The notes beneath the pieces are model-generated. The model did no database searches, was not told where the DNA came from, and worked only from the letters and a program-made list of their open reading frames with translations. The position numbers and the translations under genes are program-made. 64,000 nt of DNA from assembly GCA_964523885.1 (NCBI GenBank), contig CAZFYX010000085.1:117736-181735 (forward strand), given 5' to 3'. How positions within the stretch are numbered: position 1 is the first letter of the stretch; each line of letters opens with the position of its first letter. This DNA comes from an uncultured Burkholderiales bacterium (lineage in GTDB: Bacteria; Pseudomonadota; Gammaproteobacteria; Burkholderiales; SHXO01). This document shows, piece by piece, positions 40,417 through 54,909 of the stretch.

Positions 40417-40755
40417 TCAGTGACTGATCATCCACGGCCGCTTGGTCGGGAAGCTCTTCTTCCCGTCCGGCGCGACCGCAGTGGCCTTGCTCACGCCGCT
40501 GCCGCAGCCGCAGCCGGGACCGTGCTTGTGCCCGAGCTGGGCCGATGACCTCGGCTCGTGCCGCGCCCGCTCGTTGATCGCGTGTGCCTTGCGATCGGCG
40601 GCGGGCATGCCGGCGTAAGCGGGCGCGGACAGCAGCGCCCGTTGCGCCTCGCCGCCGCAGTCGGGGCACGGATGCGGCCGCGACGACTGCGACATCGGCC
40701 GCAGGGCGGTGAAGTCGCTGCCGCAGCCGTCGCACAGATACTCGTAGACCGGCAT
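40417..40755 (-). CDS. fmdB: FmdB-family zinc-ribbon protein
   Basis: MPVYEYLCDGCGSDF...HPCPDCGG is the CxxC..CxxC FmdB signature. It lies downstream of the formamidase gene. Confidence 0.8.
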   Translation of the reverse strand: MPVYEYLCDGCGSDFTALRPMSQSSRPHPCPDCGGEAQRALLSAPAYAGMPAADRKAHAINERARHEPRSSAQLGHKHGPGCGCGSGVSKATAVAPDGKKSFPTKRPWMISH

Positions 40756-40912
40756 GGCCCTTCTCCCTATCATGATGTTGAAATATGCGATCGCCACCTG
40801 CGTACCCGGTAGTTGAACCAATGTCGGGTTCCGCCCAATCCATCACTTGCTGCGCGGGTGCGCCACCGATGAAGCCTGGAGGCGCGCCGCGAAGCAGTTC
40901 TTCAACAGCCTG

Positions 40913-42142
40913 CTACTTGTCCGGCGACATCGGGATGTCGACCCCGCCCTTGATCGCCTTGACCGGACCGGCGGCGCTCGGGTTGATGTCGAACTCGAAG
41001 ATCCCGGTGGGCAGCCACAGCGTCGCGCACGCGTTGGGGATGTCCACCACACCGCTGATGTGGCCCTGCACGGGGGCCGTCCCGAGGATGGCGTAGGCCT
41101 GCGCCTTGGAGTACCCGAACTTGGTCATGTACTCGATCGCGTTCAGGCACGCCTGGCGGTAGGCGACGTGCACGTCGAGGTAGTGCTGCTTGCCCCACTC
41201 GTCGACCGAGATGCCCTCGAAGATCAGGTAGTCGTTGTAGGTCGGCGTGATCGGGCTGGGCTTGAAGATCGGGTTCTTGATCCCGTACTTGGCCATGCCG
41301 CCCTTGATCAGGCTGACCTTCATGTGCACCCAGCCGGCCATCTCGATCGCGCCGCAGAACGTGATTTCGCCGTCACCCTGGCTGAAATGCAGGTCGCCCA
41401 CCGACAGGCCCGCACCGTCGACGTAGACCGGAAAGAAGATCTTGGAGCCGCGCGACAGGTCCTTGATGTCGCAGTTGCCGCCGTGCTCGCGCGGCGGCAC
41501 GGTGCGCGCACCTTCCGCGGCGATCTTCGCCTTGGTCTCGCCGGTCGCCTTGCCCGCATGCGCGGTCTTGGGGAAGGGCGGGTTGGCCAGCGGCGGCACG
41601 CGCGTGGGATTGGTCGCGATGAAGTCCACTTCGCGCTCGTTCCACATCTCCAGCATCTTGCGGTCGGGCAGGCAGCCGATCAGGCCGGGGTGGATGAGGC
41701 CGGCGAACTTCACGCCCGGCACGTGGCGCGAATGCGTGTACAGGCCGCTGATGTCCCAGATCGACTTCTGTGCCAGCGGGAAGTGGTCGGTCAGGAAGCC
41801 GCCGCCGTTCTGCTTCGAGAAGAAGCCGTTGAAGCCCCACAGGCTGTCGGGCTTGGCGCCCACGTCGAGCAGATCCACCACCAGCAGGTCGCCGGGCTGC
41901 GCACCCTTCACGCCCACCGGGCCGGACAGGAAGTGCACGGTGGACAGGTCGACGTCGCGAACGTCATCAGCGCTGTCGTTGTTCTTGATGTAGCCGCCGG
42001 TCCAGTCGTAGGTCTCGAGGACGAAATCGTCGCCCGGGTTGACCCAGCAGGCCATCGGGATGTCCGGGTGCCAGCGGTTGTGGATCATCTCGTTGTTGTA
42101 CGGGGATCCGTTGAGGTCTACTTTGATCAGGGTCTCCGGCAT
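40913..42142 (-). CDS. fmdA: Formamidase (acetamidase/formamidase family)
   Basis: 409 aa. IHNRWHPDIP...ETYDWTGG...FLSGPVGVKGAQPGDLLVVDL is the full-length FmdA pattern. AAGGAG RBS. Confidence 0.9.
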   Translation of the reverse strand: MPETLIKVDLNGSPYNNEMIHNRWHPDIPMACWVNPGDDFVLETYDWTGGYIKNNDSADDVRDVDLSTVHFLSGPVGVKGAQPGDLLVVDLLDVGAKPDSLWGFNGFFSKQNGGGFLTDHFPLAQKSIWDISGLYTHSRHVPGVKFAGLIHPGLIGCLPDRKMLEMWNEREVDFIATNPTRVPPLANPPFPKTAHAGKATGETKAKIAAEGARTVPPREHGGNCDIKDLSRGSKIFFPVYVDGAGLSVGDLHFSQGDGEITFCGAIEMAGWVHMKVSLIKGGMAKYGIKNPIFKPSPITPTYNDYLIFEGISVDEWGKQHYLDVHVAYRQACLNAIEYMTKFGYSKAQAYAILGTAPVQGHISGVVDIPNACATLWLPTGIFEFDINPSAAGPVKAIKGGVDIPMSPDK

Positions 42143-42321: not shown

Positions 42322-43011
42322 TCACACGGACAGGTACTGCTTGACGCGGTCGGCGTCGATGTTGGCGCGCGCGGACTCGTGCACCAGCCGGCCACCCTCG
42401 ATGACGAACAGGCGGTCGGCGACGTCCAGGGCGAACGAGAGCACCTGCTCCGACACGATGATCGTGATCTTGCGCAGCTTGCGGATCTCGTTCAGCGCCT
42501 TGGCGATGTCCTTGATGATGGAAGGCTGGATCCCCTCGGTGGGCTCGTCGAGCAGCAGCACCTTGGGGTTGGTGACCAGCGCCCGCGCAATGGCCAGCTG
42601 CTGCTGCTGTCCGCCGGAGAGGTTCCCGCCGCGGAGCTTGCGCATGTCGAACAGCACCGGGAACAGGGCGTAGATGTCCTCCGGAATGGTCCGATCCTTC
42701 GCGTTCTCCAGGCCGGTCTTGATGTTCTCCTCCACCGTGAGCGTGGGGAAGATCATGCGCCCCTGGGGCACGTAGCCGATGCCCTTGGCCACGCGCAGGT
42801 AGCTCTCGTCCTTCGAGACGTCCACGCCGTCCACCTGCACCTGGCCGGCCTTCAGCGGCAGCACGCCCATCAGCGCCTTGAACAGCGTGGTCTTGCCCAT
42901 GCCGTTGCGGCCCATGATGGCGACGGTCTCGTTCCTGTCGGCAGAGAAGCTGATGCCATGGATGGCCTGGCTCTGGCCGTAGCTCACGAACAGGTCGTTT
43001 ACGTTCAGCAT
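42322..43011 (-). CDS. urtE: Urea/short-chain amide ABC transporter ATP-binding protein UrtE
   Basis: 229 aa; GRNGMGKTT Walker A, LSGGQQQQLAIARAL signature. Confidence 0.9.
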   Translation of the reverse strand: MLNVNDLFVSYGQSQAIHGISFSADRNETVAIMGRNGMGKTTLFKALMGVLPLKAGQVQVDGVDVSKDESYLRVAKGIGYVPQGRMIFPTLTVEENIKTGLENAKDRTIPEDIYALFPVLFDMRKLRGGNLSGGQQQQLAIARALVTNPKVLLLDEPTEGIQPSIIKDIAKALNEIRKLRKITIIVSEQVLSFALDVADRLFVIEGGRLVHESARANIDADRVKQYLSV

Positions 43012-43024
43012 GTGGTTCTCCGGC

Positions 43025-43771
<747 letters not shown>

Positions 43772-43798: not shown

Positions 43799-45010
43799 TC
43801 AGGCGACCGCGCCGCCCACTTCGCCCGCCGCGCCCGCTTCCTTGGTCGCGGCGCTCTTCGCGGCCCCGAGACGCGCGGCGGAGTCGGGCGTGGCGGCCGG
43901 CGGCGTGGCCGGCGGCACTGCCGGCGCAGGCGCAGGCTTCTTCTTCAGCCACGGCTTCACGTGGCTCTCGTACAGCCCGGCCAGGCCGTTGGGGAAGGCC
44001 AGCGTGACGCCGATGAACAGGGCCGCCATCAGGAACAGCCACAGCTCCGGGAACGTCTCCGAGAAGTAGGTCTTGCCGAAGTTCACCAGCAGGGCGCCGT
44101 AGACCGCGCCGACCAGCGACAGGCGCCCGCCGACCGCGGCGAAGATCACCATCTCGATCGAGGGCACGATCCCGACGAAGGAGGGCGACATGAAGCCGAC
44201 CTGCAGCGCGAACATCGCGCCGCCGATCCCGCACAGCATCGCCGCCAGGCAGAACACGAAGATCTTGAAGTTGGCCACGTCGTAGCCGGAGAACCGCACC
44301 CGGTCCTCCTTGTCGCGCATGGCCAGCAGCAGCGTGCCCAGCTTGCTCTTCTGGATCGCGCGGCACACGAAGATGGCCGCGAACAGCAGGCCGGCGTTGA
44401 CGTAGTAGAGGATGTACCTGGCCGAGTCGGTGCGGATGTCCCAGCCCAGCAGGGTCTTCAGGTCGGTGATCCCGTTGACCCCGCCGGTGTAACCCTGGCG
44501 CCCGATGATGAGCACGGTGAGGATCAGGGCCACGGCCTGCGTGATGATCGCGAAGTAGACGCCGCCCACGCGCCGCTTGAACATGGCGAAGCCGATGATG
44601 AACGCGAGGATCGTCGGCACCAGCAGCACCGCGAGCAGCGCGAACGGCAGGTGCTTGAACGGCTCCCACCAGAACGGCAGCTCGGTGAGCTGGTTCCAGT
44701 CCATGAAGTCGGGGATGCCCGGCGTGGACTGGATCTTGGTGCTCTCCGGGTCGGACGCCTCGAGCTTGAGGAACATCGCCATGCAGTAGCCGCCGAGGCC
44801 GAAGAACACGCCCTGCCCCAGGCTCAGGATGCCGCCGTAGCCCCACAGCATGACCAGGCCGACAGCCACGAACGCGTAGGTGAGGTACTTACCGATCAGG
44901 TTGAGGCGGAAGATGTCGGCCGTGAGCGGCATCACCGCGAGGACGACCACGGCGAGGATGAGGATGCCCGCGAGGTCGGACGAGGCGAGCCAGTTGCGAA
45001 GCTTCTGCAT
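43799..45010 (-). CDS. urtC: Urea/short-chain amide ABC transporter permease UrtC, with an Ala/Pro-rich C-terminal tail
   Basis: LivM-type permease. AGGAG lies before the ATG at 45010. The last ~50 aa (KKKPAPAPAVPPATPPAATPDSAARLG...) are low-complexity. Confidence 0.85.
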   Translation of the reverse strand: MQKLRNWLASSDLAGILILAVVVLAVMPLTADIFRLNLIGKYLTYAFVAVGLVMLWGYGGILSLGQGVFFGLGGYCMAMFLKLEASDPESTKIQSTPGIPDFMDWNQLTELPFWWEPFKHLPFALLAVLLVPTILAFIIGFAMFKRRVGGVYFAIITQAVALILTVLIIGRQGYTGGVNGITDLKTLLGWDIRTDSARYILYYVNAGLLFAAIFVCRAIQKSKLGTLLLAMRDKEDRVRFSGYDVANFKIFVFCLAAMLCGIGGAMFALQVGFMSPSFVGIVPSIEMVIFAAVGGRLSLVGAVYGALLVNFGKTYFSETFPELWLFLMAALFIGVTLAFPNGLAGLYESHVKPWLKKKPAPAPAVPPATPPAATPDSAARLGAAKSAATKEAGAAGEVGGAVA

Positions 45011-45043
45011 GCGGTACTCCTGGTTGCGAACTGCCTTGACTGC

Positions 45044-45092
45044 GTTACCCCTCACCCCCGCCCTCTCCCGCAAGGGGAGAGGGGTAACGGGG
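45044..45092. repeat. REP-like element, family A (nested perfect palindromes)
   Basis: GTTACCCCTC (45044-45053) pairs with GAGGGGTAAC (45079-45088). The inner palindrome is CCCTCTCCC-GCAA-GGGGAGAGG. Confidence 0.8.
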
Positions 45093-45101
45093 GGCGTCCG
45101 A

Positions 45102-46016
45102 TCAACGCCGCACCTTCAGGGCGAACAGGCCCTGCGGCCGGATCATCAGGATCCCCACGATTGCGAGCAGCGTGACCACCTTCGCCATCGAGCCGGTGAG
45201 GAAGAATTCGGTGATCGACTGGGTCTGGGCGATGCCGAACGCGGAGGCCACGGTGCCCAGCAGGCTGGCCGCGCCGCCGAAGGTGACCACCAGGAACGCA
45301 TCCACGATGTAGAGCGAGCCGCTGGTCGGGCCGGTCGAGCCGATCGTGGTGAACGCGGCGCCGGCGACTCCGGCGATGCCGCAGCCGATGGCGAAGGTCA
45401 TGCGGTCGGTCTTGCGGGTGTTGATGCCGATCGCGTTGGCCATGGTGCGGTTGGCCACCGTGGCGCGCACCCGCAGCCCCCAGCGCGAGCGGAACAGCAG
45501 CAGGAACACCAGGCCGGTGACCAGCAGCGTGAGGGCCATGACGAACAGGCCGTTGATCGGAATGTCCAGGCCCTCCTTCGGCGCCCACGATCCGAGCAGC
45601 CAGTCGGGCAGCGTCGGGCTCACCTCCTTGGCGCCGAAGGTCGAGCGGAACACCTGCTGCATGCCCAGGCTCAGACCCCAGGTCGCGAGCAGGGTGTCGA
45701 GCGGGCGGCGGTAGAGGTGGCGGATCAGCGCCCACTCGGCCAGCCAGCCGGCGCAGAAGGCCAGGATGAAAGCCGCGATGATCGCGACCAGGAAGTAGTA
45801 GGGCATCAGCGCCGGCGCGTAGTTCTGCGTCAGCGTGGAGAGCATGAAGATGGTGTAGGCGCCGATGGTCATGAACTCGCCGTGCGCCATGTTGATGACG
45901 CCCATCTGCCCGAAGATGATCGCCAGCCCCAGCCCCATCAGCAGCAGCACGCTGAACAGGCTCAGGCCGGCGAAGCCCTGCATCACCACGATGTTCCAGA
46001 GATCTGCTGCGCTCAT
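45102..46016 (-). CDS. urtB: Urea/short-chain amide ABC transporter permease UrtB
   Basis: LivH-type permease (GLGLAIIFGQMGVINMAHGEF). The ATG at 46016 has GAGGG 9 nt upstream; the GTG at 46034 is an alternative start. Confidence 0.85.
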   Translation of the reverse strand: MSAADLWNIVVMQGFAGLSLFSVLLLMGLGLAIIFGQMGVINMAHGEFMTIGAYTIFMLSTLTQNYAPALMPYYFLVAIIAAFILAFCAGWLAEWALIRHLYRRPLDTLLATWGLSLGMQQVFRSTFGAKEVSPTLPDWLLGSWAPKEGLDIPINGLFVMALTLLVTGLVFLLLFRSRWGLRVRATVANRTMANAIGINTRKTDRMTFAIGCGIAGVAGAAFTTIGSTGPTSGSLYIVDAFLVVTFGGAASLLGTVASAFGIAQTQSITEFFLTGSMAKVVTLLAIVGILMIRPQGLFALKVRR

Positions 46017-46060
46017 GCGCGTGGGCCCTCGCACTTCTGATTGGAGAAGGGAACCGCGCT

Positions 46061-46250: not shown

Positions 46251-47513
46251 TTACTGGTAGCCCTTCGGGAACGGATCGGGCGCGATCAGGTTGGGCGACT
46301 CGGCCACCACCTTGAACTGGCCGTCGAGCTGGATCTGCCCGATGCGCGCCTTGCTCCACAGGTGGTGGTTCGGGTCCACCTTCACGTAGCCTTCCGGAGC
46401 GGTCTTCAGCTCGATGCCCGGCGAGGCTTCAGCGATCTTGTCGACGTCGAAGCTGCCGGCCTTCTCCACCGCGGCCTTCCACAGCCACGGGCCGAGGTAG
46501 GCGGCCTGGGTCACGTCGCCGATGACGGATTTCGCCCCGTACTTGGCCTTGAACGCTTCCACGAACTTCTTGTTGTTCGGGTTGTCCAGGCTCTGGAAGT
46601 ACTTCATGCAGGCGTAGAAGCCGGCGCAGTTCTCGCCGCCGATGCCGAGCAGTTCGTCCTCGGTCACCGAGATCGTCAGCAGCAGCTGCTTGTCGGAGGT
46701 GATGCCGGCCGCCTTCATCTGCTTGTAGAAGGCCACGTTGCTGCCACCCACCACGATGGCGTAGATGCAGTCCGGCTTGGCGACCTTGATCTTGTTGATG
46801 AGCGAGTTGAAGTTGGTGTGGCCGAGTGGGTAGTACTCCTCGCCCACCACCTTGCCCAGCTTGCCCACGCGCTCGATGTGGGCGCGCGCGATCTTGTTCG
46901 AGGTGCGCGGCCAGATGTAGTCGGAGCCGATCAGGAAGAAGCTCTTGGCCCCCTTCTCCTTGGCCACCCAGTCCAGGCCCCAGATGATCTGCTGGGTGGC
47001 TTCCTGGCCGGTATAGATGACGTTCTTGGACTGCTCCAGGCCCTCGTAGAAGGTCGGGTAGTACAGCATCCCGTTCTCCTTCTCGAACACCGGCAGCACC
47101 GCCTTGCGCGAGGCCGAGGTCCAGCAGCCGAACACGGCGGCGACGCGGTCGTTCACCAGCAGCTTCTTCGCCTTCTCCGCGAAGGTCGGCCAGTCGCTCG
47201 CGCCGTCCTCCTGGATCACCTTGATCTTGCGGCCGAGGATGCCGCCGGCGGCGTTGATCTGGTCGATGGCGAGACGCTCGGCCTGGATCGATCCGGTCTC
47301 GCTGATCGCCATTGTGCCGGTCGCCGAGTGCAGTTGCCCGACGGTGACCTCGGTGTCGGTCACGGCGAGCTTGGTCGTGTTCACCTTGTCGGTGGGATAG
47401 GTGGCCGACCAGCTCAGCCCGGGCACGGCGAGCAGCGGCAGCGATGCGAGGCCCTGCATGACGCGACGACGGGTCGGGGACTGCAGTTCCGGGCGATCTT
47501 CCTGCGATGACAT
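46251..47513 (-). CDS. urtA: Urea/short-chain amide ABC transporter substrate-binding protein (UrtA/FmdD family)
   Basis: 420 aa. Twin-arginine-like signal (SPTRRRVMQGLASLPLL), then TVGQLHSATGTMAISE...INAAGGILGRKI. AGGAG lies 6 nt before the ATG at 47513. Confidence 0.9.
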   Translation of the reverse strand: MSSQEDRPELQSPTRRRVMQGLASLPLLAVPGLSWSATYPTDKVNTTKLAVTDTEVTVGQLHSATGTMAISETGSIQAERLAIDQINAAGGILGRKIKVIQEDGASDWPTFAEKAKKLLVNDRVAAVFGCWTSASRKAVLPVFEKENGMLYYPTFYEGLEQSKNVIYTGQEATQQIIWGLDWVAKEKGAKSFFLIGSDYIWPRTSNKIARAHIERVGKLGKVVGEEYYPLGHTNFNSLINKIKVAKPDCIYAIVVGGSNVAFYKQMKAAGITSDKQLLLTISVTEDELLGIGGENCAGFYACMKYFQSLDNPNNKKFVEAFKAKYGAKSVIGDVTQAAYLGPWLWKAAVEKAGSFDVDKIAEASPGIELKTAPEGYVKVDPNHHLWSKARIGQIQLDGQFKVVAESPNLIAPDPFPKGYQ

Positions 47514-47620
47514 GTGCATCTCCTGGTGGTGGATGGAAGTCGGGATCAAGCGTGGGGACCGCGATTTCCGGTTCACGTGTTCGACGGGGGCCAGATTGCG
47601 ACTTTCGTTGCACAGCAGCA

Positions 47621-47638
47621 ATACGTCGATTGACGTAC
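47621..47638. promoter_or_regulatory. Candidate response-regulator operator, site 1 (7-2-7 inverted heptamers)
   Basis: aTACGTCG-AT-TGACGTAc; differs from site 2 at two left-arm positions. Confidence 0.5.
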
Positions 47639-47657
47639 CGTTCCCGGGTGCCCGCCC

Positions 47658-47675
47658 GTACGTCAAATGACGTAC
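47658..47675. promoter_or_regulatory. Candidate response-regulator operator, site 2 (perfect 8-2-8 palindrome)
   Basis: GTACGTCA-AA-TGACGTAC. Centres of sites 1 and 2 are 37 bp apart. An extra half-site, TACGTGG, lies at 47711-47717. Confidence 0.55.
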
Positions 47676-47859
47676 TTGCTCCAGTGACTGCGCACTTGCC
47701 ATTGCGCAAGTACGTGGGAATGAAGTAGATTGTTGCGAAGCAGCAGGAGTGACCTGCTGAAGAACGCCGGCAGGCGTCGACAGTAGCTCGCGCGTGGCTC
47801 TGGCAGGCTCGCGTTTCGTCAGGTTCAAGAGGGAGGTGCGCGCAGGCCCGCGCTCCGCG

Positions 47860-50800
47860 ATGCGGATGCGTGCGCCATCGCGGTGCATGCCGGCAGTCCA
47901 ACGCATCTCGCGTGTGCGTCGCGAGTACAACCAGTTCGTCGCGGACGAGACGCTCGAGGATTACTCGCTGCGCTTCACCGCGAAGTCGGCGCGCAAGTGG
48001 TCCTGCCTGCGCGTGGCCAACACCGCGCTGGGCTCGATCTCCTTCCTCGCCCTCGAGGCCATCGGCGCGGCGATCACGCTGAGCTACGGCTTCAGCAACG
48101 CGGTGCTCGCCATCCTGGTGGTGGGCAGCATCATCTTCCTCACCGGGCTGCCGATCAGCTACTACGCCGCGAGGCACGGCGTGGACATGGACCTGCTCAC
48201 GCGCGGGGCGGGCTTCGGCTACATCGGCTCCACCATCACCTCGCTCATCTACGCGTCGTTCACCTTCATCTTCTTCGCCATCGAGGCGGTGATCCTGGCG
48301 ATGGCGCTGCAGATGTGCTTCGGCATCCCGCTGTGGATGGGCTACCTGATCAGTGCCTTGGCGATCATACCGCTGGTCACCCACGGCATCACGCTCATCA
48401 GCCGCTTCCAGGTCTGGACCCAGCCGGTGTGGGTGCTGCTGAGCCTGCTGCCGTTCGTGTTCATCGCCGCGCAGGCGCCCGCGGAGCTCGCAGGCTGGAC
48501 CCACTTCACCGGCCAGCACGGCCCGGCCGACGGCTCGGTGAGCCTGCTGGCATTCGGCGCGGCCGCCTCCGTGGCCTTCTCGCTCGTCGCCCAGATCGGC
48601 GAGCAGGTCGACTTCCTGCGCTTCCTGCCGCCGCAGAGCAGGGTCGGCCGCACGCAGTGGTGGCTGGCCATGCTGGGCGCCGGTCCAGGCTGGATCCTGA
48701 TCGGGGTGCTCAAGCTGCTGGCCGGATCGCTGCTCGCCTACCTCGCGCTGATGCAGGGGCTGCCGGGCGACCGCGCCCTGGAGCCGACCCAGATGTACCT
48801 GGTCGGGTTCGAGTACGTGTTCTCCTCGCCGCTGCTCGCGCTGTGGGTCACCGGCTTCTTCGTGGTGATCTCGCAGCTCAAGATCAACGTCACCAACGCC
48901 TACGCCGGGTCGATCGCCTGGTCGAACTTCTTCTCCCGGCTCACCCACAGCCACCCCGGGCGCGTGGTGTGGCTGGTGTTCAACGTGCTGCTCGCCCTGC
49001 TCCTGATGGGCCTGGGCGTGTTCCATGCGCTCGAGCAGGTGCTGGGCTGGTACTCCAACGTCGCCATCGCCTGGATCGGCGCGCTGGTCGCCGACCTGGT
49101 GGTCAACAAGCCGCTGGGCCTGAGCCCGCGCAACGTCGAGTTCAAGCGCGCCTACCTGTACGACATCAACCCGGTGGGTGTCGGCGCGATGCTGGTGGCC
49201 TCGGTGATCTCGATCACGGCGTTCACCGGCATGCTGGGCGAGACGCTGCGTGCGCTCGCGCCCTTCCTGGCACTGGGCATCGCGTTCGTGACCGCACCGC
49301 TGATCGCGTTCGCCACTAGCGGGCGCTTCTACAGCGCGCGTCCCGCCGACCCGCCGGCGCAGGCCGGCACGGTGGCCTGCGTGATCTGCGAGAACCACTT
49401 CGAGCCCGAGGACATGGCCCACTGCCCGGCGTATGCCGGGCCGATCTGCTCGCTGTGCTGCTCGCTCGACGTGCGCTGCGAGGACTCGTGCAAGACCGAT
49501 GCGCACCTCTCGCACCAGGTGCTGCAGGCGCTGGGCCGGTTCCTGCCGCCGCGCATCGTGGCGAGCCTCAACTCCAGCCTGGGCCACTACCTGGGGGTGT
49601 TCGCGCTCATGACCGCCGGGCTGGGCGCGATCCTCTGCCTGCTCTACCTGCAGGAAGCGGCCACCGATCCGCTGCATGGCCAGGTCGGCGGCGCGGTGCT
49701 CTGGGAGGTGTTCTTCGTGTTCACCCTGATCACCGGCGTGGCGGCCTGGCTGCTGGTGCTGGCGCACCAGAGCCGCAAGGTGGCGCAGGAGGAGTCAGTC
49801 CGGCAGACGCAGCTGCTGATGCAGGAGATCGAGGCGCACAAGCGCACCGACGCCCAGCTGCAGAAGGCCAAGGAGGTCGCCGAGGCGGCCAACCTGGCCA
49901 AGAGCCGCTACGTGACCAACATCAGCCACGAGCTGCGCACGCCGCTCAACACCGTGCTGGGCTACGCGCAGCTGCTCCAGCGCGACGAGAGCATTCCCGC
50001 GCACCGGCGCGATGCGATCGAGGTCATCCGGCGCAGCAGCGAGCACCTGTCCGGCCTGATCGACGGCCTGCTCGACATCGCCAAGATCGAGGCCGGCCGC
50101 TTCCACCTGCACCGCGGCGAGGTGGCGTTCCGCGACCTGCTCGACCAGGTAGTGCAGATGTTCAGCCTGCAGGCGGCCAGCAAGGGCCTGGAGTTCCGCT
50201 TCGAGGCGCAGGCGCTGCCCGACCTGGTCTACGCCGACGAGCGCCGGCTGCGGCAGATCCTCATCAACCTGCTCTCCAACGCGATCAAGTTCACCGAGCG
50301 CGGCCACGTCACGCTGCGCGTGCGCTACGTGCGCCAGCTCGCGGAGTTCGAGATCGAGGACAGCGGCGTGGGCATCGCGCCTCAGGACATCGAGCGGGTG
50401 TTCATGCCGTTCGAGCGCGGCAGTGCGGCCACGCGTGCCGCGGCGCCGGGCACCGGGCTGGGCCTGACCATCAGCAAGCTGCTGGTCGAGATCATGGGCG
50501 GCAAGATCCAGGTGGAGAGCCGGGTGCGGGTGGGCACCACCTTCCGCTTCACGCTGATGCTGTCGCAGGTCACCTCGCCCACTGCGCGGCCCGGGGCCCA
50601 GCGCCGGGTGCGCGGCTACCTCGGCGCACGCCGCACCGTGCTGGTCACCGACGACGAGCCGGGCCATCGCGACCTCATCGCGGCGTTCCTCGAACCGCTC
50701 GGCTTCCACGTCGTGAGCGCGGCCAACCATCGCGAATGCCTCGAGCTGGCCTCCGCCCTGCCCGTCGACCTGTTCCTGCTCGACGTCGCGATGCCGGAGA

Positions 50801-51264
50801 TGGACGGCTGGGAGCTGGCCCGGCAACTGCGCCAGGCGCTGGGCTCCGAGGCGCCGATCATCATGGTCTCGGCCAACGCGTACGAAAGCCAGCGGGCCGG
50901 CGCCGGACCGGCGCTGCACGACGATTTCGTGGTGAAGCCGGTGGACTTCTGGCAGCTGCTGGAGAAGATCCGCCACCACCTGCAGCTGGAGTGGCTGTAC
51001 GAGGATCCGGAAGCCGCCGCGCCGGTGCTGCCACCCGCGCTGGTCCCGGCCAACCTGCCCTCGGTGCCGCGCGACGCGCTGGAGAGCCTGTGGTCGCTGG
51101 GCCAGATGGGGCACGTGCGCGGCATCCACCGGCGCCTGGACGAGCTGGAGCAGGCCGACGAGGCCTCGCGCACGCTGGCCCTGCACCTGCGCCCGCTGGT
51201 GAAGGCGTTCCAGCTCAACCGCTACATGCAGATCCTGGACGAGTTGCGCTCGCATGTCGCCTGA
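47860..51264 (+). CDS. Hybrid sensor histidine kinase with an N-terminal NCS1 (purine/cytosine permease)-like 12-TM domain and a Cys-rich module
   Basis: Permease-like region (YYAARHGVDMDLLTRGAGFGYIGSTITSLIY...). Nine-Cys segment at 49378-49491. Two further TM helices. HisKA H-box SHELRTPLN (His codon 49927-49929). HATPase (GTGLGLTISK). Receiver (LLDVAMPEMDG, Asp codon 50782-50784). Helical C-terminal tail. The start is uncertain (ORF open from 47794). Confidence 0.85.
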   Translation: MRMRAPSRCMPAVQRISRVRREYNQFVADETLEDYSLRFTAKSARKWSCLRVANTALGSISFLALEAIGAAITLSYGFSNAVLAILVVGSIIFLTGLPISYYAARHGVDMDLLTRGAGFGYIGSTITSLIYASFTFIFFAIEAVILAMALQMCFGIPLWMGYLISALAIIPLVTHGITLISRFQVWTQPVWVLLSLLPFVFIAAQAPAELAGWTHFTGQHGPADGSVSLLAFGAAASVAFSLVAQIGEQVDFLRFLPPQSRVGRTQWWLAMLGAGPGWILIGVLKLLAGSLLAYLALMQGLPGDRALEPTQMYLVGFEYVFSSPLLALWVTGFFVVISQLKINVTNAYAGSIAWSNFFSRLTHSHPGRVVWLVFNVLLALLLMGLGVFHALEQVLGWYSNVAIAWIGALVADLVVNKPLGLSPRNVEFKRAYLYDINPVGVGAMLVASVISITAFTGMLGETLRALAPFLALGIAFVTAPLIAFATSGRFYSARPADPPAQAGTVACVICENHFEPEDMAHCPAYAGPICSLCCSLDVRCEDSCKTDAHLSHQVLQALGRFLPPRIVASLNSSLGHYLGVFALMTAGLGAILCLLYLQEAATDPLHGQVGGAVLWEVFFVFTLITGVAAWLLVLAHQSRKVAQEESVRQTQLLMQEIEAHKRTDAQLQKAKEVAEAANLAKSRYVTNISHELRTPLNTVLGYAQLLQRDESIPAHRRDAIEVIRRSSEHLSGLIDGLLDIAKIEAGRFHLHRGEVAFRDLLDQVVQMFSLQAASKGLEFRFEAQALPDLVYADERRLRQILINLLSNAIKFTERGHVTLRVRYVRQLAEFEIEDSGVGIAPQDIERVFMPFERGSAATRAAAPGTGLGLTISKLLVEIMGGKIQVESRVRVGTTFRFTLMLSQVTSPTARPGAQRRVRGYLGARRTVLVTDDEPGHRDLIAAFLEPLGFHVVSAANHRECLELASALPVDLFLLDVAMPEMDGWELARQLRQALGSEAPIIMVSANAYESQRAGAGPALHDDFVVKPVDFWQLLEKIRHHLQLEWLYEDPEAAAPVLPPALVPANLPSVPRDALESLWSLGQMGHVRGIHRRLDELEQADEASRTLALHLRPLVKAFQLNRYMQILDELRSHVA

Positions 51265-52180
51265 GCAGGCCCGCCAGCGCGTGCTCGTCGTGGACGACAC
51301 GCCCGAGACCCTTGCGCTGCTCACCGATGCGCTGGAGGAGGCCGGCATGACCGTGCTGGTGTCCGTGGACGGAGCCAGTGCGATCGAGCGCGCGCAGCAC
51401 GCCATGCCCGACATCATCCTGCTCGATGCGATCATGCCGGGCATGGACGGGTTCGAGACCTGCACCCGCCTGAAGCAGTTGCCGCACACCGCGAAGGTGC
51501 CGGTGGTGTTCATGACCGGCCTGTCCGACACCGAGCACGTGCTGCGCGGCTTCCGGGCCGGCGGAGTCGACTATGTGACCAAGCCGATCGTGCCCGAGCA
51601 GTTGATCGCGCGCCTGCGCACGCACCTGAACAACGCCCGCCTGGTATCGAGCGCGCACGATGCGATCGACCTGGGCGGGCGCGCGGTGCTGGCCCTGTCG
51701 GAGAACGGCAGCATCGCGTGGCGCACGCCGGAGGCCGAACGGCTGCTGCAGGAAGTGGTGGTGCCCGGCACCCGCGCCCTGCCCCAGGATCTGCTGGAGC
51801 GGCTGCGCGCCGAGGGTGAGGCCGACGAGGCGCGCCGGGGTCGACGCACCGCCGCGGTCGAGCTGCAGGCCGGTGCGCACACCCTGGCCTTCACCCCGAT
51901 CGGGCGCACGAACGGCAGCGAATTGCTGGTGGCCGTCGAGGTGCGCAACGTGGCGGACGGCGAGGCGCGCCTGCGCGAGCGCTTCGGGCTGACGCTGCGC
52001 GAATGCGAAGTGCTGCTGTGGGTGGCGCGCGGCAAATCCAACCGTGACGTGGGCGAGATCCTCGAGCTGAGCCCGCGCACGGTCAACAAGCACCTGGAGC
52101 GCATCTTCGTGAAGCTGGGCGTGGAGAACCGGGCGGCCGCGGCCGGGATCGCCATGGGCATCCTGGCGGAGCGGGGTTAG
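51254..52180 (+). CDS. Response regulator: receiver, ~100-aa middle domain, LuxR/FixJ-type HTH
   Basis: VLVVDDTPETL...IILLDAIMPGMDGFE...KP, and a C-terminal LTLRECEVLLWVARGKSNRDVGEILELSPRTVNKHLERIFVKLGV. It overlaps the kinase gene by 11 nt. Confidence 0.9.
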   Translation: MSPEQARQRVLVVDDTPETLALLTDALEEAGMTVLVSVDGASAIERAQHAMPDIILLDAIMPGMDGFETCTRLKQLPHTAKVPVVFMTGLSDTEHVLRGFRAGGVDYVTKPIVPEQLIARLRTHLNNARLVSSAHDAIDLGGRAVLALSENGSIAWRTPEAERLLQEVVVPGTRALPQDLLERLRAEGEADEARRGRRTAAVELQAGAHTLAFTPIGRTNGSELLVAVEVRNVADGEARLRERFGLTLRECEVLLWVARGKSNRDVGEILELSPRTVNKHLERIFVKLGVENRAAAAGIAMGILAERG

Positions 52181-52900: not shown

Positions 52901-52936
52901 GACGGCGCCCTCCCCGGAGGGCGCCGTCGGCTTTTT
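52901..52936 (+). terminator. Rho-independent terminator of phaP
   Basis: GACGGCGCCCTCC pairs with GGAGGGCGCCGTC (52901-52928) and is followed by GGCTTTTT. It abuts the stop of the convergent GGDEF gene. Confidence 0.8.
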
Positions 52937-54909
52937 CAGGCCGCTCGCGGCGGTGACGGCGGCTCTGAGGCGAACACGCGATTGCGCCCTGCGGCCTTGG
53001 CTGCGTAGAGCGCGTTGTCGGCAGCCTTGAGCAGTTCGTCGGCACGCTGCATGTCGGCGGTGCGCTGCGCCGCGCCCACGCTCAGACTGGTCGTGCAGCT
53101 CACCGCACCGTTGCTGAAGCGCGTGCGCGCCACGGCATTGCGCAGGCGCTCGCCCAGCTGGGTGGCGGCAGCCAGTGGCGTATCCACGCAGATCACCAGG
53201 AACTCCTCTCCGCCGATGCGGCAGATGCCGTCCTCCGTGCGTGCCTCCTTGCGCAGCACGGCGGAGGCCTGGCGCAGCACGAGATCGCCGATGTCGTGCC
53301 CGTACGAATCGTTGATGTCCTTGAAGCGGTCCAGGTCCAGCACCAGGCAGGACAGCGGCCGGTTGCTGCGCAGGGCCGCGGCCCACTCCTGGTCGAGCCG
53401 CTCCATCGCGTAGCGGCGGTTGGGCAGCCCCGTCAGCGGATCGGTCAGCGCCGCCTGCTGCAGGCGCCGGTTCGCTACCGCGAGCTCGGCTGCGAACTTG
53501 CGCAGGTTCTCCGCATCGCGCCGCGCTTCTTCCTGCAGCCGGATCACCCGCAGGCCCGCGCGCAGGCGCGCCGCCAGCACGCGCGGCGTGAACGGCTTGG
53601 TGAGGTAATCGTCCACGCCCGACTCGAAGGCCTCGATCAGCTGCTCGTCCTGCTCCAGCGCGGACAGGATGATGAAGTACATCTGCTGGCCTTCCTCGGT
53701 CTGGCGCAGCGCCTTGCACAGCGCCAGGCCGTCCAGGCCCGGCATGATCCAGTCGGAGATGATGATCTGCGGACGCAAGCTGATGGCACGTGCCAGCCCG
53801 GTCCTGCCGTCCTGCGCCGTGTGCACGGTGTGGCCGAGCCCCTTCAGCAGGTGCTCGAGCACCAGCAGCGTGGAGCGGTCGTCGTCCACCGCCAGGATGG
53901 TGAGCGGCTGCAGCGCTGCAGCCGAGGGGGCCGCATCGAGCGCCGGCGGTGGGGGCTCCTGCCGGTCGCAGATGACCGAGCCCAGCTCGGGCACGTCCTG
54001 CGTGGGCACCTCGAGGATCTTGCCCCACTCGCGCCACTGCTCGACCAGCGCCACGGTCATCTTCCCGAGCGCCTCCTCGTCGAGACCGACCTTGGCGCCC
54101 GCGAGGATCAGGTCGGGCGCCATCGCGTGCCGGTCCTGGTCGCGGGCGACGCAGAAGTCGGCCAGCTGAGCGCTCAACCTCAGCAATGCACAGACCGCGC
54201 GCTCGCGCGAACCCTCCGGGGCCGGACTGGCGGTGGGGTCCTCGTGATGGAACACGGCGGCCACGAACAGGCGCGGCAGGCGCCAGTCCTCCAGCAGCGC
54301 AGCCGACAGCTCATTGTGGTCGGTGGCGAAGCGCTCGCGCTCGCGCGCAGCCGGGACCAGCCCGCGCTCGCCACCGGCGAGCAGCTCGGCGAACTCCTCC
54401 GGGTAGATCGTGGCCAGGGCGAGCGTGCCGACGCCGGCGAGCAGGCCGCAGGTGAACGCCTCGTCCGCCGGTGCGCTGCGCACCCGGTCGGCGGTGCGCG
54501 CGGCGGCGATTGCCATGGCCAGCGAGCGCGACCAGAAGCGCTGGTAATCGAAGCCCTTGCAGGTGCCGCTGCGGTATTGCCCGAGCAGCGAGAAGCCGAG
54601 CACGAGCTGGCACACCGTGTTCACCCCGATCATGCGGATCGCCTCGGGGATCGAGACGACCGGGCGCCGCAACCCCTGCCCGGCCGAGTTGGCGAACTTG
54701 ATGATGCGGCCGGACAGGGCCGGATCGGCGCGCACCGCGTGGGCGATCTCGTCCACGCTGGTGCCGTCGCGGCGGCACAGCTCCACCACGGCCAGAGCCA
54801 CGCCGGCCGGCGAGGGCAGCTTGCCGGTGGTCTTCAGCTCCTCGAACTTGGCGTGCTGGGTCACGGGTGGTGGACCGCCGGGGCGGGAAAGGGGCGCCCC
54901 TGGGAGCAT
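52936..54909 (-). CDS. HDOD - receiver - GGDEF diguanylate cyclase
   Basis: HDOD (LPSPAGVALAVVELCRRDGTSVDEIAHAVRADPALSGRIIKFANSA). REC (ILAVDDDRSTL...IISDWIMPGLDG). GGDEF with an intact GGEEF and an RTED I-site 5 residues upstream. The start is uncertain (ATG at 54909 or GTG at 54864). Confidence 0.9.
   Translation of the reverse strand: MLPGAPLSRPGGPPPVTQHAKFEELKTTGKLPSPAGVALAVVELCRRDGTSVDEIAHAVRADPALSGRIIKFANSAGQGLRRPVVSIPEAIRMIGVNTVCQLVLGFSLLGQYRSGTCKGFDYQRFWSRSLAMAIAAARTADRVRSAPADEAFTCGLLAGVGTLALATIYPEEFAELLAGGERGLVPAARERERFATDHNELSAALLEDWRLPRLFVAAVFHHEDPTASPAPEGSRERAVCALLRLSAQLADFCVARDQDRHAMAPDLILAGAKVGLDEEALGKMTVALVEQWREWGKILEVPTQDVPELGSVICDRQEPPPPALDAAPSAAALQPLTILAVDDDRSTLLVLEHLLKGLGHTVHTAQDGRTGLARAISLRPQIIISDWIMPGLDGLALCKALRQTEEGQQMYFIILSALEQDEQLIEAFESGVDDYLTKPFTPRVLAARLRAGLRVIRLQEEARRDAENLRKFAAELAVANRRLQQAALTDPLTGLPNRRYAMERLDQEWAAALRSNRPLSCLVLDLDRFKDINDSYGHDIGDLVLRQASAVLRKEARTEDGICRIGGEEFLVICVDTPLAAATQLGERLRNAVARTRFSNGAVSCTTSLSVGAAQRTADMQRADELLKAADNALYAAKAAGRNRVFASEPPSPPRAA

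Follow-up and report, generated by a model that had tools for sequence, protein, structure and literature searches.

Paired inverted-heptamer palindromes as predicted operators of a LuxR-type response regulator at a urea/amide transporter and formamidase locus

Two 18-bp palindromes lie between divergently transcribed urea/amide transporter and two-component system genes in the window, that is, the whole 64-kb stretch of DNA that was analyzed. From sequence comparison, we consider it quite probable that they are operators of the response regulator encoded at 51254–52180 and that this regulator would act on them to activate urtABCDE-fmdA-fmdB. The sites, their conservation, their linkage to target genes, the covariation of their half-sites with the recognition helix of the regulator, and the spacing between them and a -10-like hexamer were all computed.

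The palindromes and their surroundings in the window

Site 1 (47621–47638; aTACGTCG-AT-TGACGTAc, ATACGTCGATTGACGTAC) and site 2 (47658–47675; GTACGTCA-AA-TGACGTAC, GTACGTCAAATGACGTAC), neither of which is assigned to a strand, were found as the initial annotation had described them, with centres 37 bp apart. Both fall within the 373-bp spacer that separates urtA, on the minus strand, from the hybrid sensor kinase gene, on the plus strand. Their centres are 116.5 bp (site 1) and 153.5 bp (site 2) from the urtA ATG (47513, minus strand), matching the 116 and 153 bp reported earlier. The 8-bp arms of site 2 are perfect and centred on AA; those of site 1 are mismatched at the outermost and innermost positions, while the core TACGTC/GACGTA is perfect. 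Read as heptamers, the sites are TACGTCA-AA-TGACGTA (site 2) and TACGTCG-AT-TGACGTA (site 1), inverted and separated by 2 bp. This 7-2-7 layout, which had been attributed to regulators of the NarL/FixJ type, agrees with published NarL sites, as does the position of the centre near -43.5 discussed below (PMC10853779).

The two sites stand out from the rest of the window. A search with TACGTCNNNNGACGTA or TACGTC-N4-GACGTA, allowing up to one mismatch, returned sites 1 and 2 as the sole matches in 64 kb. For TACGTC-N4-GACGTA, the expected number of matches is 0.06 per 64 kb, and none of 100 shuffled sequences contained two or more. With a weight matrix derived from relatives, site 1 scored 23.2 bits and site 2 scored 22.4 bits, and a scan of the window with the same matrix found no other place that reached 11 bits. 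The palindromes might still be chance sequences or structural DNA or RNA elements, such as a cruciform, a hairpin, a terminator, or a repeat element, with no protein-specific role, and they are indeed (near-)perfect palindromes in GC-rich DNA. We give this reading a nearly negligible probability. The chance expectation is low, only two copies occur in the window, a 2-nt loop makes a stable hairpin impossible, and no terminator-like site was found. Furthermore, an Rfam scan of the spacer returned no family, which excludes, for example, a guanidine/ykkC-type riboswitch, and the positions of the sites are fixed across proteobacterial classes while their flanks diverge. The conservation and covariation presented below effectively refute a chance or purely structural origin.

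The initial annotation had listed TACGTGG as a further half-site. This heptamer is indeed present at 47711–47717, where it belongs to a doubtful, degenerate 7-3-7 element, TACGTGG-GAA-TGAAGTA (47711–47727, no strand assigned), but its proposed significance did not hold up. The half-sites of this element score 4.8 bits each, no higher than chance, and 1.4 TACG/CGTA tetramers are expected by chance in 373 bp. Thus, the TACGTGG sequence is real but not significant; given its score, the 7-3-7 layout, and the absence of conservation, it was rejected as a further half-site.

Other repeats were observed in the spacer. A perfect 10-nt inverted repeat, ACGTACTTGC / GCAAGTACGT (47670–47679 and 47706–47715), connects the right arm of site 2 with the lone TACGTGG; the chance expectation for such a repeat in a 400-bp region is about 0.1. 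There is also a direct repeat, GTTGCACAGCAGCA / GTTGCGAAGCAGCA (47607–47620 and 47732–47745), whose first copy touches site 1 and contains a TGCnnTGCA element that many clades retain beside the palindrome. A conserved (T)GCA is found on both strands at about 18–20 bp from the centre of the palindrome (20-mer coordinates 28–31), within the putative promoter spacer, in the window as well as in the related loci L001–L080. We rejected the TGC..GCA flanking elements as sigma-54 or NtrC sites, the spacing, judged by eye, being wrong.

Conservation across related loci and linkage to target genes

A sensor-domain alignment was scanned against one genome per species and yielded 80 loci (57–68% identity) spanning Alpha-, Beta-, and Gammaproteobacteria. 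In about 70 of the 80, fmdA-urtEDCBA is divergent from the kinase and regulator genes. In many of these loci, the literal pattern of the window occurs 100–450 bp upstream of the kinase; elsewhere in 1.5 Mb, it is nearly absent. We refined a 20-bp weight matrix on the kinase-upstream regions (consensus over 75 loci, aTACGTCAwwTGACGTAt); conservation is 99% in columns T3, C5, and G6 and in the mirror columns C15 and A18. Of 81 kinase-upstream regions, 75 contain a match to the matrix. Sites number 2.07 per kb within 500 bp upstream of the kinase versus 0.008 per kb in the remaining 1.5 Mb; as the same intergenic regions also served to train the matrix, this enrichment is in part circular. The literal-pattern search and a separate metagenome set outside the matrix training served as unbiased checks. 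Every metagenomic locus with a divergent urtA contained a site, scoring 18.7–26.7 bits; the remaining metagenomic loci, which are without the site, are either stand-alone permeases or paralog subfamilies whose regulator is of another type. The best metagenomic match is 71% identical. Thus, conservation in orthologous control regions, on which the earlier proposal had been made to depend, was found in 64 of the 67 genomic loci with an upstream urtA and in 11 of 11 metagenomic loci with a divergent urtA.

A few loci depart from this pattern. Half-sites or weak sites at most are present in L049, L060, L071, L072, and L077, and no site was found at three kinase-regulator pairs without an adjacent urt operon (L076, L079, and L080). 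Two strong sites 37 bp apart were seen in this window alone, the relatives having a spacing of 22 or 52 bp; a 37-bp spacing would place two dimers on opposite faces of the helix, which counts against the model of joint activation set out below.

The genes on the urtA side, all on the minus strand, were assigned by family models. They comprise urtA, encoding the substrate-binding protein of a urea/amide ABC transporter (46251–47513; TIGR03407, 544.7 bits, cut-off 492.75), the permease genes urtB (45102–46034; TIGR03409, 397 bits, cut-off 250) and urtC (43799–45073, start codon uncertain; TIGR03408, 453.9 bits, cut-off 296), and the ATPase genes urtD (43025–43771; TIGR03411, 380.5 bits, cut-off 304) and urtE (42322–43011; TIGR03410, 331.3 bits, cut-off 286). 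These are followed by fmdA, encoding a formamidase (40913–42142; NF045496, 767 bits, cut-off 500), and fmdB, encoding a zinc-ribbon protein (40417–40821; PF09723 and TIGR02605). UrtA–E and FmdA all exceed their curated NCBIfam cut-offs, and FmdB too scores above the cut-off of its curated family. Because a weight-matrix search found no site in the 179-bp gap between urtE and fmdA, the latter is probably cotranscribed with the urt genes.

In related genomes, the site travels with these target genes. Where urtA, fmdA, or amiE stands apart from the kinase (L023, L030, L032, L045, L051, L069, and L075), high-scoring sites are found upstream of them, and fmdA has a high-scoring site of its own in L032, L045, L051, and L069. 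In L023 (7602–9784) and L075 (8808–9845), an aliphatic amidase gene, amiE, scoring 713–716 bits (cut-off 427) separates the palindrome from the kinase and is divergent from urtA, and the site remains in the urtA/amiE spacer. Since amiE adjoins the palindrome in both loci, the regulon extends to this gene. In L023, amiE is followed by a gene for an AmiB-like AAA ATPase. L030 carries one site each at urtA and at the kinase, the latter 102 bp upstream of the kinase gene. In most loci, the site centre is 75–130 bp from the urtA ATG, whereas its distance from the kinase start varies between 37 and more than 2400 bp. As the site follows the targets and its distance to urtA is narrow compared with the wide range for the kinase, we conclude that the primary target is the urtA promoter.

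The response regulator, its recognition helix, and the sensor kinase

The regulator gene (51254–52180, plus strand) lies 3.6 kb from the palindromes and encodes a protein of 308 amino acids with a receiver (REC) domain, a middle domain of about 110 residues, and a LuxR/GerE helix-turn-helix (HTH) with the recognition helix SPRTVN278KHLE. The REC domain matches PF00072 (E=2e-27, residues 10–121), its active-site residues D14, D15, D58, T88, and K110 are invariant in 32 homologs, and REC matches dominate when the regulator profile is compared with the PDB. The output domain matches PF00196 (GerE/LuxR, E=2.8e-17, residues 246–298) as well as solved LuxR-type DNA-binding domains including those of LiaR, VraR, DosR, and NarL. 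Thus, the LuxR-type HTH that the initial annotation ascribed to the adjacent regulator is there, but the protein is not a plain NarL/FixJ-type regulator. The simple architecture of that family has a short linker and about 200–220 residues, whereas here a conserved insert of about 110 residues separates REC from the HTH. Against the NarL model NF007935, the protein scores 76.1 bits (cut-off 250) and against the FixJ model 73.9 bits (cut-off 255); judged by these scores, it is not an ortholog of NarL or FixJ.

In a low-confidence model, residues ~128–235 (51635–51960 in the window) adopt a beta-beta-alpha-alpha-beta-beta-beta arrangement, and one homolog gives a weak PAS match in this part. The AlphaFold model was computed from a single sequence and has a mean pLDDT of 58.9, too low for a fold search; we therefore describe the middle domain only tentatively as PAS-like. 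It may be a second input domain. A gene for an HDOD-REC-GGDEF protein (52936–54909, minus strand) lies directly downstream of the regulator gene and is convergent with it; no tie between it and the palindromes was seen.

The half-sites covary with residue 278 of the recognition helix. Regulators with N278 are accompanied by TACGTC half-sites, base 5 being T in 94 of 100 and base 6 being C in 83 of 100. Regulators with D at this position are accompanied by TACGC(A/G); 40 of 46 have C as base 5, and 44 of 46 have a purine as base 6. The D-type regulators fall into Bradyrhizobium-like, Methylocystaceae, and single Burkholderiales MAG clades in a neighbour-joining tree; on bootstrapping, three clades were recovered in 175 of 200 replicates, two in 21, and one in none. 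We estimate from this tree that the change from N to D took place in about three separate lineages. Rarer variants have other half-sites, namely TACGCTA/TACGGCA with S (L078) and GTACGCCACCCGGCGTAC, upstream of an urtA-like gene, with K (L074). In the D-type metagenomic loci L100 and L150, base 6 is again a purine; the N-type locus L068, with TACGCAG/TACGCAT, is an exception.

In an ungapped alignment with E. coli NarL, the sequence of which was checked by its length and residue numbers, N278 falls on Lys188. In helix alpha-9 of NarL, Lys188, Val189, and Lys192 make base-specific contacts (PMC10853779). The covariation between residue 278 and base 6 is the strongest argument that the palindrome is read by the adjacent regulator and probably not by another protein.

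Another binder, such as the FmdB zinc-ribbon protein, a global nitrogen regulator, or a CRP/FNR-like factor, would leave the neighbouring regulator to act elsewhere. In keeping with such a reading, fmdB, a conserved member of fmd clusters, has been described as a putative positive regulator (PMC10781810), the Methylophilus fmd operon is repressed by ammonium, and TGC..GCA elements are conserved beside the palindrome. We nevertheless hold it to be very unlikely, as the half-site covaries with one recognition-helix residue of this particular regulator in about three independent lineages, the 7-2-7 layout suits dimers of LuxR-type HTH domains, the site co-occurs with the kinase-regulator pair in three proteobacterial classes, and the spacing is unlike that of NtrC (TGCACC-N5-GGTGCA) or sigma-54 elements.

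The hybrid sensor histidine kinase (47887–51264, plus strand) consists of a permease-like domain with 12 transmembrane segments, a Cys-rich segment, and HisKA, HATPase, and REC domains. Its start is probably the ATG at 47887, because this agrees with the homolog consensus MxxxQxIxRVRRxYNQ, and it is this start that gives the spacer its length of 373 bp. The N-terminal 600 residues form a multi-pass membrane domain, annotated in the sources as purine-cytosine-permease-like. Between the membrane domain and HisKA (about 49380–49495), eight cysteines in the pattern CxxC...C...CxxCC...C...C are invariant in 12 diverse homologs; this segment may be a metal or iron-sulfur module linking the sensor to the kinase. 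No Hpt domain was recognizable in the hybrid kinase, and the ~90 C-terminal residues past REC (50990–51264), which might be a divergent Hpt domain, matched no family. More than 5600 homologs of the sensor domain were found. This domain (47887–49700) is 53–56% identical to stand-alone permeases without a kinase part in metagenomic loci, and the genes of such permeases adjoin formamidase genes in L134, L137, L146, L148, L149, L151, and L159. This suggests that the sensor of the kinase derives from a formamide/amide permease. Given the likeness to a permease and a regulon made up of a urea/amide transporter, a formamidase, and sometimes amiE, its likely ligands are formamide, short amides, or urea.

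Promoter geometry, proposed mechanism, and known systems

All loci were anchored on the palindrome, and nAnnnT hexamers were counted by 20-mer coordinate. On the urtA side, the hexamer starts at coordinate 42, which is 31.5 bp away from the centre of the palindrome, in 46% of loci; coordinates 43 and 64 account for another 27% each. On the kinase side, nAnnnT was present at the same 31.5-bp offset in 65% of loci and TAnnnT in 53%. The background frequency of nAnnnT is 4.5%, the enrichment at this offset is about 10-fold, and the signal survives the omission of Bradyrhizobium-type loci. With the transcription start taken 7 nt after the hexamer, the 31.5-bp offset puts the palindrome centre at about -43.5 on both strands. 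Since hexamers are present on both sides, a single symmetric site appears to serve two divergent promoters in most relatives. The gammaproteobacterial loci combine a strong site with a degenerate copy 22 bp nearer urtA; there, the -10 hexamer (G/C)ATACT lies 22–27 nt past the degenerate copy, which puts the sites at -65.5 and -43.5. An upstream conserved TA was considered as part of an extra half-site and rejected; it lacks a following conserved CG and, on the other strand, matches TAnnnT, so that a -10-like hexamer is the better reading.

In the window, the -10-like hexamer CAATCT (47593–47598, minus strand) of the putative urtA promoter lies at the expected offset from site 1, and the closest relative (L001) shows TAATCT there. 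Thus, site 1, which corresponds in position to the primary site of relatives, would be the promoter-proximal urtA operator, centred at about -43.5, and site 2 would be centred at about -80.5. A weak -35-like TTGCTG (47616–47621, minus strand), read from the sequence, may overlap the edge of site 1. Where the relatives have TAnnnT, GCCATT stands on the kinase side of site 2. The initial annotation had noted that the spacer is shared with the kinase operon. The urtA promoter is the primary target; the kinase-side hexamer expected at site 2 is missing, and autoregulation in the window is therefore uncertain. Site 2 may also serve the kinase promoter, for which a speculative candidate was picked out by eye, TTGCGC (47702–47707)-18 bp-TAGATT (47726–47731) on the plus strand (47702–47731), which would place site 2 at about -71.5. 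A scan of 47450–47950 for consensus promoters and terminators found nothing, the candidate kinase promoter included, and the promoters were thus placed only by comparative offsets. The lack of a canonical promoter is what we would expect if transcription were activator dependent.

Based on these data, we propose that the permease-like hybrid kinase would sense a short-chain amide, formamide, or urea and phosphorylate the regulator. A regulator dimer would then occupy each 7-2-7 inverted repeat, with one LuxR-type HTH per TACGTCA heptamer. Site 1 would overlap the -35 region of urtA in the manner of a class-II-like activator site, site 2 would lie about 37 bp farther upstream, and the two would jointly activate urtABCDE-fmdA-fmdB, much as NarL acts at yeaR (-43.5) and ogt (-44.5 and -77.5). 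What we infer in this scheme is that the regulator binds and that it activates rather than represses, where transcription starts, which ligand is sensed, and how phosphotransfer proceeds.

The regulator might also bind and mainly repress, or mainly autoregulate the kinase-regulator operon instead of activating urtA. The place of site 1 on the -35 region is one from which RNA polymerase could be blocked as well, the mirror-offset -10-like hexamer on the kinase side of 65% of relatives points to probable control of the kinase or amiE operon as well, and L030 has its separate site upstream of the kinase. We think that this outcome is unlikely, though less so than binding by another protein. There is no good -35 element (TTGCTG in the window, with an empty consensus scan), as is typical where a promoter depends on an activator; the -43.5 geometry is that of the NarL-activated yeaR; and substrate-responsive two-component systems for uptake or catabolism usually activate. 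Furthermore, urtA but not the kinase has a site in L023 and L075, and site 2 of the window is without the kinase-side hexamer. On balance, activation of urtA from sites 1 and 2 is the reading we prefer.

More tentatively, in a generalization that we would rate somewhat below even, the palindrome may be the operator of a large, unstudied "transceptor" family, composed of a permease-derived sensor with eight cysteines and a REC-PAS-like-LuxR regulator, that would detect formamide, short amides, or urea in many Proteobacteria. Mostly, one two-faced activator site at -43.5 would serve two divergent promoters, and N or D at the position of NarL Lys188 would set base 6 of the half-site.

Outside AmiC/AmiR, sensing and induction for the use of formamide, short-chain amides, and urea are poorly known. 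A 2024 review of formamidase regulation cites FmdB as the sole (putative) regulator, and two 2026 genome papers merely record a LuxR-type two-component pair adjoining urtABCDE-fmdA. In the open literature, subscription-only papers aside, we found no study of this kinase-regulator pair or operator. The regulon model gained here, with an operator sequence, a likely promoter position, a cognate regulator, and a candidate specificity residue, is directly testable and concerns a system present in thousands of genomes. The N/TACGTC and D/TACGCR combinations form a natural operator-regulator variant pair that can be used to study or engineer the specificity of LuxR-type HTH domains, and formamide- or urea-inducible expression systems are a possible use. 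While the 7-2-7 kind of operator is known from NarL, the operator and the kinase-regulator pair described here appear not to have been studied before.

Several known systems share parts of this arrangement. AmiC/AmiR of Pseudomonas aeruginosa likewise provides amide-responsive control of short-chain amide catabolism (amiE), and amiE stands beside the palindrome in L023 and L075. AmiR is an RNA-binding antiterminator and AmiC is its ligand sensor; unlike the present system, AmiC/AmiR is not known to involve a DNA palindrome or a histidine kinase. The fmdCABDEF cluster of Methylophilus methylotrophus resembles the locus in grouping a formamidase, FmdB, and a binding-protein-dependent amide/urea transporter, but its gene order is different, and FmdB was the proposed regulator there, with no two-component system or operator reported. 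CrbS/CrbR (MxtR/ErdR), MctS/MctR, and EupK/EupR similarly pair a transporter-domain kinase with a LuxR-HTH regulator for the uptake or catabolism of small solutes. The sensor domains of CrbS, MctS, and EupK belong to the SLC5/sodium-solute-symporter type, whereas the sensor here is purine-cytosine-permease-like and is followed by eight invariant cysteines; the operator sequences also differ. The MctR model matches the HTH region only partially (72.8 bits, cut-off 300). EupR is described as a NarL/FixJ regulator of ectoine uptake (PMC2964678).

Comparison with NarL/NarX of E. coli bears most directly on the sites themselves. Both systems have inverted heptamers with a 2-bp gap and an outer end TAC, and in both the binder is a dimer of a REC-LuxR HTH regulator, here by prediction. 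The NarL heptamer is TACYYMT, while the heptamer here is TACGTCA. The regulator of the window, with its 76 bits against a cut-off of 250 and its ~110 extra residues between REC and the HTH, stands apart from NarL, and its kinase differs from NarX in being a hybrid with a permease-like sensor, the signal presumably being an amide or urea rather than nitrate. The variable specificity residue N278 aligns with the base-contacting Lys188 of NarL. Last, the 7-2-7 sites of NarL are centred at -43.5 at yeaR and in tandem at -44.5 and -77.5 at ogt (PMC10853779), close to the -43.5 and -80.5 that we predict for sites 1 and 2.
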